Positions 351 through 20,071 of a stretch of DNA of 34,633 nucleotides are shown piece after piece. Source of the DNA: Escherichia coli. GTDB lineage: Bacteria > Pseudomonadota > Gammaproteobacteria > Enterobacterales > Enterobacteriaceae. The position numbers were made by a program, and so were the translations under genes. The notes beneath the pieces are model-generated. The model did no database searches, was not told where the DNA came from, and saw only the letters and a list, made by a program, of their open reading frames with translations. Positions within the stretch are counted from its first letter, which is position 1; every line of letters begins with the position of its first letter. The stretch lies in assembly GCF_003334815.1 (NCBI RefSeq), contig NZ_QOWO01000038.1. One strand, given 5' to 3'.

Positions 351-510
351 CTTCTGAAGAACAGTAGCGTAGATTGAAACTGTCCTAAATCGCTTATTTC
401 TTTTCAGTATATCTTCATATTTCAGGAGAATATGGTGCAGTTAGTCGATCTCGCACGTTGCGTTTCATTTTGATTCCGTCTGATTTCCCAGCCTTATAAG
501 GGTGTGAATT

Positions 511-1893
511 ATGGAGATGTATTTTAAAAGAATGAAAGATGAGTGGACCGGACTTGTCGAACAGGCAGATCCGCCCATTCGTGCTAAAGCCGCGGAAATT
601 GCCGTTGCGCATGCTCATTATCTGAGTATCGAGTTTTATCGAATTGTCCGCATCGACCCGCATGCCGAAGAATTCTTGAGTAATGAACAAGTTGAGCGGC
701 AGTTGAAGAGTGCGATGGAACGCTGGATTATTAACGTGCTTTCTGCCCAGGTTGACGATGTCGAAAGGCTAATACAAATCCAGCATACCGTCGCGGAAGT
801 GCATGCCCGCATAGGAATTCCGGTAGAAATTGTCGAGATGGGGTTTCGGGTGCTGAAAAAAATCCTCTATCCGGTGATCTTCTCTTCGGATTATTCCGCC
901 GCAGAAAAACTTCAGGTCTACCATTTCTCGATTAACAGTATTGATATCGCGATGGAAGTGATGACTCGCGCGTTTACCTTTAGTGACAGTAGTGCCTCAA
1001 AGGAAGATGAAAACTATCGTATCTTCTCGTTACTGGAAAACGCCGAAGAAGAAAAAGAACGGCAAATAGCCTCAATACTTTCATGGGAAATAGATATTAT
1101 CTATAAAATCCTGCTGGATTCTGATTTAGGCAGTAGTTTGCCTTTAAGCCAGGCTGATTTTGGCCTGTGGTTTAACCATAAAGGTCGACATTATTTTAGT
1201 GGTATTGCCGAAGTAGGCCATATCTCCCGTCTGATTCAGGATTTCGACGGTATTTTCAATCAAACCATGCGTAACACCAGAAATTTGAATAACAGAAGTC
1301 TGCGGGTGAAATTTTTATTACAGATAAGAAATACCGTATCGCAAATTATTACCTTGCTGCGTGAATTGTTTGAAGAAGTATCGCGCCACGAAGTCGGTAT
1401 GGATGTACTGACGAAATTACTTAACCGCCGTTTCCTACCGACTATCTTCAAACGCGAAATTGCCCATGCCAACCGGACCGGTACACCGCTGTCAGTGCTG
1501 ATTATTGACGTTGATAAATTCAAAGAGATCAACGATACGTGGGGCCATAACACTGGTGATGAAATTCTGCGTAAAGTCTCTCAGGCCTTTTATGACAACG
1601 TCCGCAGTAGTGATTATGTTTTCCGCTACGGGGGCGATGAATTTATCATTGTTTTGACTGAAGCTTCTGAAAACGAAACGTTACGTACCCCAGAACGTAT
1701 TCGCAGTCGGGTGGAGAAAACCAAACTGAAAGCCGCAAACGGCGAAGATATTGCCCTCTCACTTTCCATCGGTGCCGCCATGTTTAATGGTCATCCTGAC
1801 TATGAGCGCCTCATTCAAATAGCCGATGAAGCTCTGTATATCGCCAAAAGACGAGGTAGAAACCGTGTTGAACTCTGGAAAGCCAGTCTTTAG
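511..1893 (+). CDS. dosC: Diguanylate cyclase with N-terminal globin-coupled oxygen sensor and C-terminal GGDEF domain
   Basis: 460-aa ORF; GGDEF signature (RYGGDEF) visible in the translation; sequence recognised as E. coli DosC (YddV). Confidence 0.95.
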   Translation: MEMYFKRMKDEWTGLVEQADPPIRAKAAEIAVAHAHYLSIEFYRIVRIDPHAEEFLSNEQVERQLKSAMERWIINVLSAQVDDVERLIQIQHTVAEVHARIGIPVEIVEMGFRVLKKILYPVIFSSDYSAAEKLQVYHFSINSIDIAMEVMTRAFTFSDSSASKEDENYRIFSLLENAEEEKERQIASILSWEIDIIYKILLDSDLGSSLPLSQADFGLWFNHKGRHYFSGIAEVGHISRLIQDFDGIFNQTMRNTRNLNNRSLRVKFLLQIRNTVSQIITLLRELFEEVSRHEVGMDVLTKLLNRRFLPTIFKREIAHANRTGTPLSVLIIDVDKFKEINDTWGHNTGDEILRKVSQAFYDNVRSSDYVFRYGGDEFIIVLTEASENETLRTPERIRSRVEKTKLKAANGEDIALSLSIGAAMFNGHPDYERLIQIADEALYIAKRRGRNRVELWKASL

Positions 1894-13811: not shown

Positions 13812-14822
13812 ATGAAGGCTGCAGTTGTTACGAAGGATCATCATGTTGACGTTACGTATAAAACACTGCGCTCACTGAAACATGGCGAAGCCCTGCTGAA
13901 AATGGAGTGTTGTGGTGTATGTCATACCGATCTTCATGTTAAGAATGGCGATTTTGGTGACAAAACCGGCGTAATTCTGGGCCATGAAGGCATCGGTGTG
14001 GTGGCAGAAGTGGGTCCTGGTGTCACCTCATTAAAACCAGGCGATCGTGCCAGCGTGGCGTGGTTCTACGAAGGATGCGGTCATTGCGAATACTGTAACA
14101 GTGGTAACGAAACGCTCTGCCGTTCAGTTAAAAATGCCGGATACAGCGTTGATGGCGGGATGGCGGAAGAGTGCATCGTGGTCGCCGATTACGCGGTAAA
14201 AGTGCCAGATGGTCTGGACTCGGCGGCGGCCAGCAGCATTACCTGTGCGGGAGTCACCACCTACAAAGCCGTTAAGCTGTCAAAAATTCGTCCAGGGCAG
14301 TGGATTGCTATCTACGGTCTTGGCGGTCTGGGTAACCTCGCCCTGCAATACGCGAAGAATGTCTTTAACGCCAAAGTGATCGCCATTGATGTCAATGATG
14401 AGCAGTTAAAACTGGCAACCGAAATGGGCGCAGATTTAGCGATTAACTCACACACCGAAGACGCCGCCAAAATTGTGCAGGAGAAAACTGGTGGCGCTCA
14501 CGCTGCGGTGGTAACAGCGGTAGCTAAAGCTGCGTTTAACTCGGCAGTTGATGCTGTCCGTGCAGGCGGTCGTGTTGTGGCTGTCGGTCTACCGCCGGAG
14601 TCTATGAGCCTGGATATCCCACGTCTTGTGCTGGATGGTATTGAAGTGGTCGGTTCGCTGGTCGGCACGCGCCAGGATTTAACTGAAGCCTTCCAGTTTG
14701 CCGCCGAAGGTAAAGTGGTGCCGAAAGTCGCCCTGCGTCCGTTAGCGGACATCAACACCATCTTTACTGAGATGGAAGAAGGCAAAATCCGTGGCCGCAT
14801 GGTGATTGATTTCCGTCACTAA
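13812..14822 (+). CDS. adhP: Zinc-dependent alcohol dehydrogenase (propanol-preferring)
   Basis: ORF-track frame 13782-14822; start placed at ATG 13812, directly after AAGGAGG ([12 protein letters not shown]...), 336 aa. Zinc-ligand motifs ([13 protein letters not shown]) present. Confidence 0.93.
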
Positions 14823-14831
14823 GAGGCCTTT

Positions 14832-14859
14832 GCTGCGACTGCCATGTTCGGGTCGCAGC
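14832..14859 (+). other. Hairpin after adhP (GCTGCGAC / GTCGCAGC, 12-nt loop) with no following T-tract
   Basis: Read directly; without a U-tract it may be an RNA-stability element rather than an efficient terminator. Confidence 0.3.
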
Positions 14860-14967
14860 ATCGCACACTCTCCAACATGAAATGGCTAAATGGATTATTG
14901 TTGCGTAGGAAGGAACAATAATGATAGTGTTCCCAGTGAAGGAACGCTACTGAGAGTAAAGACACTA

Positions 14968-15252
14968 ATGAAAATGGCCAATCATCCCCGCCCGGGGGAC
15001 ATTATTCAGGAATCACTGGACGAACTTAATGTCAGCCTGCGCGAGTTTGCCAGAGCAATGGAAATTGCTCCCTCAACGGCAAGCCGATTGCTGACAGGAA
15101 AAGCAGCTTTGACGCCAGAAATGGCGATTAAACTTTCCGTGGTGATCGGCAGTTCGCCGCAAATGTGGCTGAATCTGCAAAACGCCTGGAGTCTGGCAGA
15201 GGCAGAAAAAACAGTGGATGTGTCGCGATTACGCCGTCTGGTTACGCAATAA
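14968..15252 (+). CDS. yddM: HigA-family antitoxin-like HTH (Xre-type) DNA-binding protein
   Basis: ORF-track frame 14890-15252; start placed at ATG 14968 ([17 protein letters not shown]...), 94 aa. Small HTH protein typical of HigA/VapI antitoxins; recognised as YddM. Confidence 0.8.
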
Positions 15253-15254
15253 AA

Positions 15255-15280
15255 AAATGGCACTTTATAAAGCGCCATTT
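15255..15280. terminator. Near-perfect palindrome AAATGGCACTTTA|TAAAGCGCCATTT; candidate bidirectional intrinsic terminator after yddM
   Basis: Begins 3 nt after the yddM stop; A-run before and T-run after the stem allow function on either strand. Confidence 0.55.
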
Positions 15281-15304
15281 AGAACTGATGACAAACGCAA
15301 CATT

Positions 15305-15410
15305 GCCTGATGCGCTACGCTTATCAGGCCTACACGTTCACTGCAATCTATTGGATTTGAAGGGTTTTCATGCCGGATAAGGCGTTCACGCCGCATCCGG
15401 CATGAACAAA
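15305..15410. repeat. BIME: two REP elements in inverted orientation
   Basis: GCCTGATGCGCTACGCTTATCAGGCCTAC (15305-15333) and TGCCGGATAAGGCGTTCACGCCGCATCCGGCA (15371-15402) match the REP consensus families. Confidence 0.75.
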
Positions 15411-15431
15411 GCCTACGTTGTCTACAATATG

Positions 15432-15459
15432 AAAATGGCGCCTTTTACAGCGCCATTTT
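15432..15459 (-). terminator. Rho-independent terminator after fdnI (bidirectional-type hairpin)
   Basis: 10-bp stem AAAATGGCGC / GCGCCATTTT with 8-nt loop, 22 nt past the fdnI stop; the A/T runs are part of the stem arms. Confidence 0.6.
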
Positions 15460-15480
15460 CAGCTTAAAGTTCAAAAGAGA

Positions 15481-17023: not shown

Positions 17024-20000
17024 TTACGCCTTCTCGATGTTGACTAAGAACGCTTTATATTCCGGCGTTTGCGAGTTTGCATCACCGACATTCGGCGTCA
17101 GAGTGTTAGCGATATAACCTTTACGCGCGACACCCTCAAAGCCCCAGTGGATTGGAATACCCACCGTTTCAACCTGCTGACCATTTACATTCAGCGGTTT
17201 CAGACGACGCGTTACCACAGCCACCGCGCGGATAAAGCCACGCTTGCTGGAGACAGTGACACGATCGCCATTATTAATGCCTTTCGCCGCCGCCAGCGTT
17301 TCGCTGATTTCCACAAACTGTTCCGGCTGAGCAATTGCGTTGAGCAATGCGTGCTTGGTCCAGGTGTGGAAGTGCTCGGTCAGACGATAGGTCGTACCCA
17401 CATACGGGAACTGCTCTTTTTTACCCATCCGCAGCGCGTCTTGTTCATACAGACGAACAACCGGGTTAGACACCACGTTCGGATGCAGCGGGTTAGTGCC
17501 CAGCGGCGTTTCAATCGGCTCGTAGTGTTCCGGGAACGGACCTTCCGCCATTTTGTTGATGGCAAACAGGCGTCCCATCCCTTCCGGCTGCATGATAAAC
17601 GGCCCGGTTGGCGTACCCGGTGCGGCATTGCCGAAGTCAGGAATATCGTTACCCGTCCACTTGCTGCCGTTCCACTGGATCAGCATCCGTTTCGGATCCC
17701 ACGGTTTACCGTTGATATCCGCCGAAGCACGGTTGTACAGCACGCGACGGTTGAGCGGCCACGCCCAGGCCCATCCCAGCGTATTCCCCAGACCGGACGG
17801 GTCGGAGTTATCGCGGTTAGCCATCTGGTTGCCCTGCTCTGTCCAGCTACCGGTGTAGATCCAGCAAGAAGATGCGGTTGTACCGTCATCACGCAGATGC
17901 GCAAAGCTACTCAGCAACTGACCTTTCTTCGCAATAAGCACGCCATTAGCGTCATAGAGATCTTCCAGCGCGTAGCCGTTGTTCTCTTTAGCCACTTCGT
18001 CAGATTGCGGTTCGTGCGGCTGCTTGTAGTTCCAGCTCATCTTCATCAGCGGTTCTACGCCTTTACCACCTTCGGACTGGTACAGCTCGCGCAGATGATG
18101 GTAGATACCCGCCAGAATTTCACCGTCGTTACGCGCTTCGCCCGGCGCGTCCTGACCTTTCCAGTGCCACTGCAACCAGCGACCGGAGTTAGCGATAGAA
18201 CCATCTTCTTCAGCAAAGCAGGTCGAAGGCAGACGGAATACTTCAGTCTGAATAGACGCCGGATCGACATCGTTCGACTCACCGTGGTTCTGCCAGAAGG
18301 TAGAGGTTTCAGTCACCAGCGGATCGATAACCACCATGTACTTCAGCTTGCTCAGGCAGCTCACCACTTTGTTTTTGTCCGGGAAGGACGCAACCGGGTT
18401 AAAGCCCTGGCAGAAATAACCGGTGACTTTGCCTTCATCCATCATGTTGAAATACTTGATGACGTCGTAGGTCTGGTCCCACTTCGGCAGCCAGTCATAG
18501 CCCCAGTTGTTCTCTTTCTGCGCGGCATCGCCATAGAAAGATTTCATCAGGCTAACGAAGAACTTCGGATAGTTGCTCCAGTAGTTCACCTGATCAGCCA
18601 GCGTCGCTTTCGGCGTGTTCGCTTCCAGATACGACTGCAAATCAACCTGTTTTTCTGACGGCAGCGTCAGATAACCTGGCAGGCTGGTAGAGAGCAGGCC
18701 TAAGTCAGTCAAGCCCTGAATGTTGGAGTGACCACGCAATGCGTTCACGCCGCCACCGGCCATACCCATGTTACCGAGCAGCAACTGGATCATCGCCATA
18801 GTACGGATGTTCTGCGCACCCACAGTGTGCTGCGTCCAGCCCAGCGCGTACAGGAAGGTGGTTGTGCGATCCGGTGCGCTGGTGGAGGCCAGCACTTCAC
18901 ACACTTTCAGGAAGTCGGCTTTTGGCGTACCGCAGATGTTTTCAACGACGTCCGGCGTGTAGCGGGAAACGTGCTCTTTCAGCAGGTTCCACACACAGCG
19001 CGGATGAGTCAGTGTTTCATCGCGTTTCGCATAGCCGTTTTCATCGAACTGATAGTTCCAGGACGATTTATCGTATTGACGTTTTTCAGCGTCGTAGCCG
19101 CTGAACAGACCGTCTTCGAAAGCAAAATCATCACGCACCAGCAGGCTGGCGTTGGTGTAATGCTTAACGTATTCGGCGTTGATTTTGTTGTTTTCGATCA
19201 GGTAGCGCAAAACGCCAGACAGGAACGTAATGTCCGTACCGGAACGAATAGGCGCGTAAATATCCGCCACAGAAGCGGTACGCGTAAAACGGGGATCGAC
19301 AACGATCAAGGTTGCGTCGTTGTTGTTTTTCGCTTCCATCGCCCAGCGGAAACCGACGGGATGCGCTTCAGCAGCGTTACCGCCCATCACCATCACGACG
19401 TTAGCGTTTTTGATATCCACCCAGTGGTTGGTCATCGCACCGCGACCAAATGTTGGAGCAAGACTTGCTACCGTTGGTCCGTGTCAGACGCGCGCCTGGT
19501 TGTCTACCGCCAGCATCCCGAGGGAGCGGGCAAATTTCTGGGTCAGCATCCCGGTTTCGTTGCTGGCACCGGAGGCACACAGCATACCGGTAGAAAGCCA
19601 ACGGTTTACCGTTACGCCCTGCTCGTTCTTTTCAATAAAGTTAGCGTCACGGTCAGCTTTCATCAGCTTCGCAATACGGGAGAATGCTTCTTCCCAGCTA
19701 ATGCGCTGCCATTTGTCAGAACCTGGCGCACGATATTCCGGGTAGCGCAGACGGTTTTCACTGTTGACGTAATCCAGCAAACCGGCCCCTTTCGGGCACA
19801 GCGCACCACGGCTTACCGGATGATCCGGGTCACCTTCAATGTGATAAATCGCTTCTCTGGCGTTTTTTGCGCCATCACCCAGGCTATACATCAATAGCCC
19901 GCAACCTACGGAACAGTATGTGCAGGTGTTACGGATCTCTTTAGCGCGTAATAATTTGTAGTTTCGCGCCTGAGCCAGTGCTTGCTTCGGGGCAAAGCCC

Positions 20001-20071
20001 AATGCCGCTACTGTTGTTCCAGCCATACCGCCCGCGCAGATTTTAAAAAATTGTCTGCGACTGACGTCCAT
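17024..20071 (-). CDS. fdnG: Formate dehydrogenase-N alpha subunit, selenocysteine-containing molybdoenzyme with Tat signal peptide
   Basis: Two ORF-track pieces (19484-20071 and 17024-19435) are in the same frame, separated only by TGA at 19484-19486 (minus strand) and 16 sense codons. The N-terminus has the twin-arginine motif SRRQFFK. Read as one 1015-codon gene with UGA = Sec. Confidence 0.93.
19440..19483 (-). other. SECIS element directing selenocysteine insertion at the fdnG UGA
   Basis: Bacterial SECIS lies immediately 3' of the UGA. The mRNA here contains a GCAAGUCUUGC mini-helix resembling the fdhF-type SECIS apical region. Fold not computed. Confidence 0.55.

Follow-up and report, generated by a model that had tools for sequence, protein, structure and literature searches.

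The yddM gene of Escherichia coli encodes a protein of the HigA antitoxin type, and in the 34,633-nucleotide stretch of E. coli DNA analysed here (the window) it stands without a toxin partner. This raises two questions: whether YddM is the remainder of a toxin–antitoxin (TA) pair or a regulator that was always solitary, and whether the gene is transcribed from a promoter of its own or by read-through from the upstream gene adhP, which a preliminary description of the sequence had called likely. The reading favoured here, with good but not full confidence, is that yddM is the orphan antitoxin of an ancestral higBA operon whose toxin gene was deleted while the operon's own promoter was retained, and that its product would now be a self-repressing, stand-alone regulator.

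Identity of yddM and organization of the locus

The window carries the segment order maeA–adhP–yddM–fdnI of E. coli, and the K-12 locus, as annotated in RefSeq, is identical to it. The features of the region are listed in Table 1.

Table 1. Features of the adhP–yddM region, in window coordinates.
Feature	Position	Strand	Evidence and remarks
adhP (alcohol dehydrogenase)	13812..14822	+	ORF list, RefSeq K-12 locus, tblastn 100% identity; stop 14820–14822
Hairpin downstream of adhP	14831..14860	+	9-bp perfect stem, 12-nt loop; repeat search, RNA folds of four alleles, alignment
Segment specific to the toxin-less allele	14861..14894	+	Alignments, direct repeat; unalignable to the toxin-bearing allele
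O1, operator-like palindrome GTTGC-N7-GGAAC	14900..14916	+	Half-sites kept and spacer variable in 25 sequences from nine genera
AT-rich O1–O2 spacer with −10 candidates	14917..14928	+	AATAAT 14917–14922, GATAGT 14923–14928; hexamer scan
O2, operator-like palindrome GTTCC-N7-GGAAC	14929..14945	+	Composite pattern search, cross-genus conservation
Deletion junction and short 5' leader	14946..14967	+	Alignments; junction modelling ambiguous
yddM (HigA-family antitoxin/Xre-HTH, toxin gone)	14968..15252	+	ATG 14968, TAA 15250–15252, 94 codons
Hairpin directly 3' of the yddM stop	15255..15280	.	Terminator scan; alignment of four alleles

YddM matches Pfam HTH_3 (5.1e-9) over residues 14–65, a Cro/C1-type helix-turn-helix, and NCBIfam TIGR02607 (antidote_HigA) over profile positions 1–80 of 81, scoring 93.7 bits where the cut-off is 47.7. 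It is 100% identical to PDB 2ICP/2ICT, "antitoxin HigA", whose crystallised protein has 94 aa, and RefSeq already labels yddM "HigA family addiction module antitoxin". By the curated family threshold and the solved HigA fold, YddM is a HigA-family antitoxin; the earlier recognition of a 94-aa Xre-HTH protein of the HigA type was correct.

The yddM frame stays open for 26 codons upstream of the ATG, giving an ORF of 120 aa (14890–15252). This openness had been noted before, together with the suggestion that the extension could be a remnant of an upstream partner or an alternative start. Neither part of that suggestion stands. The extension shows no toxin similarity by profile hidden Markov model (HMM) and overlies the promoter/operator region, so it is ruled out as a toxin remnant. 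It is also interrupted by a 29-bp deletion in strains RIVM_C037794 and E30, which keep the 94-aa yddM ORF intact, and by a 1-bp deletion in strain 2017.17.03CC; given these broken frames and the length of the crystallised protein, the extended ORF was rejected as the true gene. An Rfam search gave no match near the yddM locus, its sole match being the fdnG SECIS.

The toxin gene at orthologous loci

The preliminary description had proposed looking for an intact toxin in the orthologous adhP–yddM gap. This comparison was productive. About one E. coli genome in four has a HigB gene at that place, intact copies included, and so do E. albertii, cryptic Escherichia and most of the Citrobacter species sampled. 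Because an intact HigB occurs at the orthologous gap, yddM is an orphaned antitoxin rather than a regulator that was always solitary.

Within E. coli, positions 14700–15320 were compared with 5426 complete genomes. Toxin DNA is present in 1331 of them, in a single copy and always at the adhP–yddM locus; an annotated "RelE/ParE family toxin" lies between the two genes in a minority of the complete genomes. Strain CB6886 carries an intact toxin ORF of 279 bp (92 aa) whose stop overlaps the yddM start by 4 bp (ATGA). Its product is a full-length HigB-like protein by Pfam PF05015 (1.5e-17), matches the Proteus vulgaris/Rts1 HigB chain 4MCT_B with E = 8e-32 and an identical C-terminal YEDYH, and is 56.5% identical to the plasmid-borne, Rts1-type HigB. 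Approximately 40% of the toxin copies, as estimated from two evenly spaced samples of the 1331 toxin-bearing genomes, have a 1-bp deletion and appear in RefSeq as a frameshifted pseudogene (e.g. ST131 EC958 and S103EC).

The direction of the change was assessed with one genome per species, using YddM as the query and then searching each locus with the toxin, AdhP and FdnI. A full-length intact toxin with the 4-bp overlap precedes the YddM homologue in E. albertii, three further Escherichia and 11 of the 13 Citrobacter genomes. The same pair and overlap recur in Cedecea, Buttiauxella, Enterobacter, Pluralibacter, Chimaeribacter and Erwinia, and several distant metagenome-assembled genomes have weaker toxin-like matches upstream of the homologue. 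fdnI adjoins the pair throughout Escherichia and Citrobacter, and fdnI synteny also persists farther away in three genomes, those of unclassified Enterobacteriaceae bacterium 89, Pluralibacter and one Enterobacter; adhP adjoins the pair in Escherichia and two Citrobacter genomes. Since the outgroups carry the toxin upstream of the YddM homologue, the complete pair is the original condition of this locus, from which the toxin-less window derives.

Decay that begins with the toxin has also taken place independently in other lineages. Citrobacter sp. FP75 has an internal deletion in the toxin gene and C. portucalensis a frameshift; 3' remnants are found in Chimaeribacter californicus and Xenorhabdus khoisanae, and frameshifts in X. 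lircayensis.

Loss of the toxin gene in the window

The gap between adhP and yddM (14823–14967) measures 145 bp and is indeed too small for an intact toxin gene, as had been pointed out. The further idea that its translation might reveal a toxin remnant found no support. Six-frame translation of the gap gave no toxin ORF or remnant, and tblastn with the cognate toxin gave no match in the whole 34.6-kb window. An HMM of the toxin family, built from 20 toxin orthologues, detected remnants in four control loci (TR01, L008, L029 and L031; E 1e-15 to 1e-5); in the six-frame gaps of the window, FORC_028 and RIVM it returned only noise (best E about 5, negative scores). As the toxin gene is absent from the gap and from the whole window, the locus here is not a TA system.

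The toxin-less state is found in about 75% of E. coli genomes and comprises at least three allele types. The window-type allele with the 145-bp gap occurs in 2837 genomes, about half of E. coli, including K-12 derivatives and BL21. The FORC_028 type (about 1061 genomes) has O1 inverted between a 9-bp inverted repeat. Rarer types include the 29-bp deletion allele of RIVM_C037794 and E30 and the TR01 allele (O157:H7); the latter, in 2 genomes only, retains the last 47–50 bp of the toxin.

On the 5' side of the deletion, toxin-bearing alleles have about 80 nt of different sequence in place of the 34-nt segment that follows the adhP hairpin in the window; within this segment, ATGAAATGGCTAA nearly repeats the yddM start and forms a direct repeat with it. 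On the 3' side, only CAC-TAA-TG is clearly common to the window and toxin-bearing alleles. In it, CAC-TAA (14963–14968) corresponds to the toxin's last codon and the stop overlapping the yddM ATG, and the TAA variant also occurs in toxin-bearing strains. The leader before yddM carries a weak Shine–Dalgarno-like GAGAG at 14952–14956.

Two simple junctions were considered and rejected. Recombination between ATGAA at the toxin start and ATGAA at the yddM start was suggested by a first alignment, and an AGACAC/CAC junction by a second; single-deletion modelling fitted neither. In explicit modelling no single-deletion model fitted, the best leaving 11 mismatches, and the most divergent toxin-bearing genomes included no intermediate allele with window-type flanks. 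Neither the 22 nt preceding the ATG nor the 34 nt following the hairpin aligns to a sampled toxin-bearing allele, so that more than one event is indicated. The 279-bp toxin ORF was removed essentially exactly, with at most its last codon and stop remaining; the breakpoints and the number of events are not reconstructible.

The putative promoter and operator block

Upstream of the leader, positions 14900–14945 form a compact block in which two operator-like palindromes enclose candidate promoter elements. Its architecture is TGTT(G/C)C-N7-G(G/C)AACA, then 11–12 nt of AT-rich sequence with a conserved TA, then GTTCC-N7-GGAAC. It is common to 25 aligned sequences from nine genera, taken from upstream of the toxin gene or, in toxin-less alleles, of yddM. 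The 34.6-kb window has a single match to the composite pattern GGAAC-N10-13-GTTCC-N7-GGAAC, against 0 expected from 100 shuffles. The pattern is present in 31 of the 54 fetched loci, and in the orthologous loci examined it precedes the toxin or yddM gene. In higBA systems the promoter is typically flanked by two operators.

The half-sites and the spacers behave differently. Between the window and the toxin-bearing E. coli allele, 0 of the 20 half-site positions have changed, against 9 of the 14 spacer positions (Fisher p = 4e-5). Such a contrast is the footprint expected of palindromes that are bound by protein; YddM may bind at O1 and O2 and thereby repress its own gene.

O1 overlaps a −35 candidate, TTGCGT (14901–14906). 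A strict sigma-70 consensus scan of the gap found no promoter; under a relaxed hexamer scan, only candidates with 7 of 12 consensus positions emerged, among them the pair TTGCGT-16-GATAGT. In view of the empty strict scan, the case for a promoter depends on conservation: the TA of the −10 spacer is kept in at least 90% of the orthologous promoters. It gains support from a binding site of the RpoD holoenzyme reported by SELEX between adhP and yddM in K-12 (PMC3946193). Transcription would start near 14935, inside O2, if the spacing from the −10 candidate is taken as a guide.

The 29-bp deletion in RIVM_C037794 and E30, which lies between two GAAGGAAC repeats, removes the −10 region and half of O2. 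Because these strains still keep an intact YddM, the promoter is not indispensable everywhere.

In K-12, MazF has been reported to cut the polysome-associated yddM mRNA at an ACA located 6 nt upstream of the AUG (PMC5001579). This ACA corresponds to 14962–14964, within ACACTA (14962–14967), a sequence specific to the toxin-less junction.

The adhP hairpin and possible read-through into yddM

The hairpin downstream of adhP has G+C-rich arms at 14831–14839 and 14852–14860, and the 61-nt region folds with −20.8 kcal/mol (z = −2.3). The tail that follows is AUCGCACACUCUCC; it lacks a U-tract, as the preliminary description had observed, and a terminator scan of the window did not call the adhP hairpin. 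In the alignments and folds, the same hairpin is followed in the toxin-bearing E. coli allele by CUGUUUUG and in Citrobacter by a classical UUUGUUUUG tail, so the missing U-tract is a derived feature of the toxin-less allele.

A possible reading, though not the favoured one, is that yddM lacks an effective promoter and is mostly expressed as the distal gene of an adhP–yddM transcript which the adhP hairpin does not terminate. The missing U-tract makes read-through plausible, and the T-runs after the equivalent hairpin in the toxin-bearing allele and in Citrobacter imply that weakening of the terminator accompanied toxin loss. The promoter candidates are weak, and in the RIVM_C037794/E30 allele, which has lost the −10 region and half of O2, an intact YddM would need transcription from upstream; in such strains read-through may be the sole source of yddM expression. 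Against this stand the ancestral promoter/operator block, wholly retained with invariant half-sites, and the RpoD site reported within the gap; the two routes are, moreover, compatible with each other. Because the ancestral block is intact, read-through cannot be called the likely main route and is better seen as a possible, optional contribution that is not required. On these grounds yddM is most likely a self-promoted, autoregulated orphan antitoxin.

Selection on YddM and its present role

The YddM protein is identical in the window, K-12, FORC_028, RIVM_C037794, E30, TR01, CB6886, S103EC and E. albertii. Compared with E. albertii, yddM shows 13 synonymous and 0 nonsynonymous changes, and five toxin-less alleles segregate 7 synonymous and 2 nonsynonymous sites (P = 0.001 under neutrality, in a small sample). 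YddM is thus under purifying selection.

The course of events favoured here, that of an orphaned and self-promoted antitoxin, is as follows. YddM is the antitoxin half of an ancestral chromosomal operon of the Rts1 higBA type between adhP and fdnI. The toxin ORF was lost, while the operon's own promoter, both operator palindromes, a short leader and the whole antitoxin gene were kept. As HigA proteins do, a YddM dimer would bind both palindromes and repress its own sigma-70 promoter; with no toxin left to neutralise, YddM would now act as a small stand-alone repressor of the Xre type.

Several published K-12 data sets concern yddM. In a ChIP-exo study tagged YddM is a transcription factor candidate for which target genes are listed (Supplementary Figure S9) and the binding regions were searched for a motif; a yddM deletion strain served there for RNA-seq (PMC6237786). 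A CRISPRi single-cell screen gave new regulatory connections for yddM, and genetic interactions with stress regulators have been reported. Hypersusceptibility to epetraborole has been reported for an uncomplemented yddM deletion mutant.

A more far-reaching version, which is rather unlikely as a whole, holds that selection preserved YddM and its operators for another function once the toxin had gone, either immunity to incoming addiction modules of the HigB type or service as a domesticated stress regulator with a host regulon, and that loss of the U-tract partially rewired the gene to adhP transcription. In this version, the MazF-cleavable ACA that arose at the deletion junction might contribute post-transcriptional control.

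Anti-addiction taken by itself would mean that orphan YddM neutralises HigB encoded on plasmids and mobile elements, blocks post-segregational killing and lets the cell shed such elements. Several observations are compatible with this: the protein does not differ from the toxin's partner in toxin-bearing strains, which leaves its toxin-binding surface intact; it is under purifying selection in the absence of the toxin; 539 plasmid records, including 99 from Escherichia, carry HigB homologues; and the idea has been discussed for orphan antitoxins generally (PMC7354431). However, with the exception of three E. coli records at 92.8–100%, at least one of which is chromosome-sized (4.9 Mb), these homologues stay below 60% identity to the lost toxin. 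YddM is about 41% identical to Rts1 HigA over residues 7–87, and type II antitoxins are usually specific for their own toxin. The proposal is considered improbable.

It is doubtful that yddM is a relic with no present function, an antitoxin that outlasts its toxin because its earlier loss would kill the cell. Toxin-first decay is certainly recurrent, from the ST131-type frameshift to the remnants and frameshifts in Citrobacter sp. FP75, C. portucalensis, Chimaeribacter californicus and the two Xenorhabdus species, and some E. coli alleles have lost parts of the promoter or 12 nt of the yddM ORF. Yet the toxin-less alleles are diverse and widespread while the changes that segregate among them are mainly synonymous, in the small sample noted above; their operator half-sites are unchanged; and phenotypes and binding data have been reported for yddM in K-12. 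Because the divergence of YddM is almost entirely synonymous, a purely decaying relic is argued against.

The reverse history, in which yddM was originally a solitary regulator and pathogenic strains gained the toxin by insertion, is very improbable: the published account leaves "maintained or inserted" open for TA loci of pathogenic strains (PMC7232551) and the upstream regions of toxin-bearing and toxin-less alleles differ strongly, but in all sampled outgroups the gene immediately preceding the yddM homologue is the toxin, intact or decayed, fdnI stays in place throughout Citrobacter and in three genomes farther away, the toxin flanks lack mobile-element features, and the 4-bp overlap with yddM resembles that of a native operon.

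Relation to known systems

The closest relatives of the locus are the pairs of pathogenic E. coli. The literature gives 2ICP as the structure of YddM/HigA from E. coli CFT073. In the adherent-invasive (AIEC) strain NRG857c the pair was named TA20 and consists of a 279-bp "ParE-2" and a 285-bp "HigA-2" gene (Bustamante and Vidal, PMC7232551); TADB names it higBA. In the same study K-12 and HS have the antitoxin alone at the yddM locus, whereas NRG857c and CFT073 have the pair (PMC7232551). The locus of CFT073 and NRG857c is orthologous to that of the window, with 100% identical YddM and the same promoter/operator half-sites. The window differs in lacking the 279-bp toxin ORF, the approximately 80 nt upstream and the T-run after the adhP hairpin, and in having after this hairpin the unrelated 34-nt segment, which is absent from the CFT073/NRG857c-type allele.

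The founding higBA system, that of Rts1 from P. vulgaris, has the same toxin-first order as the ancestral pair and forms a HigB-(HigA)2-HigB complex (PDB 4MCT/4MCX; HigA 6CF1/6CHV). YddM aligns with residues 7–87 of Rts1 HigA (E = 1e-18). Unlike the plasmid-borne Rts1 system, the window locus is chromosomal and toxin-less; its putative operator, GTT(G/C)C-N7-G(G/C)AAC, was deduced from conservation.

Two other K-12 loci invite comparison. YbaQ (PDB 2EBY), the other HigA-type orphan of K-12, shares the Xre/HigA fold (E = 5.6e-9) but is encoded at another locus and is longer (113 aa). NRG857c has its toxin ("ParE-1", PF05015), CFT073 a pseudogene of the toxin, and K-12 and HS lack it (PMC7232551); YbaQ, like YddM, is listed in the K-12 table of ChIP-exo transcription factor candidates (PMC6237786). 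K-12 HigB/HigA (YgjN/YgjM) shares with the yddM locus the name and the general TA logic but belongs to another structural subclass: the helix-turn-helix is C-terminal in K-12 HigA and N-terminal in YddM (CFT073 HigA) (PMC6987408). The distribution of the two pairs is reciprocal, YgjN/YgjM being intact in K-12 and represented only by its antitoxin in NRG857c and CFT073 (PMC7232551).

Orphan antitoxins have also been interpreted as degraded TA or anti-addiction modules in a Klebsiella survey and for chromosomal ccd (PMC7354431). As with yddM, a solitary antitoxin there derives from a once-complete module; unlike those cases, the ancestry of yddM is visible within the species and its regulatory DNA is preserved.

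Implications for annotation

The orphan status of yddM in K-12 and HS, as compared with CFT073 and NRG857c, is already published (PMC7232551). Added here are a population census and a polarity, an ancestral pair and a derived loss, where the earlier account had left "maintained or inserted"; several independent decay events; a conserved and retained operator/promoter architecture; and the loss of the T-run from the adhP terminator.

These results leave the current understanding of TA biology unchanged and matter mainly for annotation and for the interpretation of K-12 data. Systems studies in K-12 treat YddM as an "uncharacterised transcription factor"; it is actually an orphaned HigA antitoxin whose toxin survives in ExPEC and AIEC lineages, E. 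albertii and Citrobacter. The locus offers a natural series of intact pair, frameshifted toxin, toxin remnant, exact deletion and promoter loss, which could be used to study TA decay, host functions of orphan antitoxins and anti-addiction immunity.

The region downstream of yddM

The hairpin directly 3' of yddM has its T-run on the minus strand, in terminator orientation for transcription from the fdn side, and is a weak terminator for yddM. A variable 178-bp unit containing REP sequence is bounded by copies of this hairpin, of which the one described here is the first.

Allelic variation of the adhP-yddM gap

The operator-like palindrome O1 is bracketed by a perfect 9-bp inverted repeat (ATTATTGTT/AACAATAAT), and the 11 nt between its arms are inverted in ~1061 genomes. 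This inversion, seen in the toxin-less FORC_028 type, turns GTTGC...GGAAC into GTTCC...GCAAC, and the palindrome is thereby preserved. Within the allele-specific segment that follows the adhP hairpin, ATGAAATGGCTAA (window 14877-14889) closely resembles the yddM start, ATGAAAATGGCCAA (14968-14981); this near copy may be due to chance or may be a trace of rearrangement.

A rare mosaic allele of the locus (2/5426 genomes), carried by E. coli O157:H7 TR01, has a left flank of the toxin type, a 29-nt O1 core of the window type and, from the toxin gene, its final 47-50 bp. Its composition implies that there is a toxin-bearing allele with a window-type O1 outside the sample. Each of the two replaced segments is exactly as long as its counterpart in the window, 34 and 45 nt.

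Downstream of yddM, a ~178-bp unit comprises a terminator-like hairpin (AAATGGCNC...GCGCCATTT) and REP-like palindromes. Among the alleles compared, FORC_028 has no copy of this unit, the window one and K-12 RV308 two; the difference is therefore copy-number variation between repeated hairpins.

Coordinates of features at and around the yddM locus
Feature	Coordinates	Strand	Location	Size or score
Inverted repeat around O1	window 14894-14922; L047 gap 424-569		window; FORC_028 (L047)	9 bp, perfect
REP-containing hairpin unit	window 15253-15480		downstream of yddM	~178 bp
Mosaic toxin-remnant allele	L004 1402-1546		E. coli O157:H7 TR01 (L004)	
SECIS_3 (Rfam)	window 19431-19489	-	fdnG	84 bits

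Decay of the locus

In strains RIVM_C037794 and E30 (L048, L049), direct GAAGGAAC repeats flank a 29-bp deletion that takes out the -10 region and, in the second operator-like palindrome O2, the left half, while YddM is intact; both strains carry an IS200/IS605 tnpA 3' of yddM. In strain 2017.17.03CC (L050), the annotation gives adhP as a partial pseudogene, the adhP-yddM gap has a 1-bp deletion, and YddM is 90 aa long with a 12-nt in-frame deletion in its gene; this locus is further decayed.

Beyond E. coli, the toxin has decayed independently and the antitoxin has been kept at orthologous loci (L008, L014, L028, L029 and L031) of Citrobacter sp. FP75, C. portucalensis A60, Xenorhabdus lircayensis, X. 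khoisanae and Chimaeribacter californicus. A 214-bp contig assigned to 'Clostridium sp. CMCC3677' (L035) encodes a protein 100% identical to residues 1-36 of E. coli YddM and also bears the operator motif; E. coli contamination of that assembly is almost certainly its source.

Transcript features

A MazF cleavage site has been published for yddM at '6 nt from start' (PMC5001579), and ACACTA (window 14962-14967), immediately 5' of the yddM AUG, agrees with it. By allele alignment, the ACA before the AUG is confined to the toxin-less junction; the toxin-bearing allele has TATCACTG there.

Farther along the window, the SECIS_3 match sits where the fdnG frame splits into two ORFs (17024-19435 and 19484-20071); this is formate dehydrogenase-N's known selenocysteine UGA.
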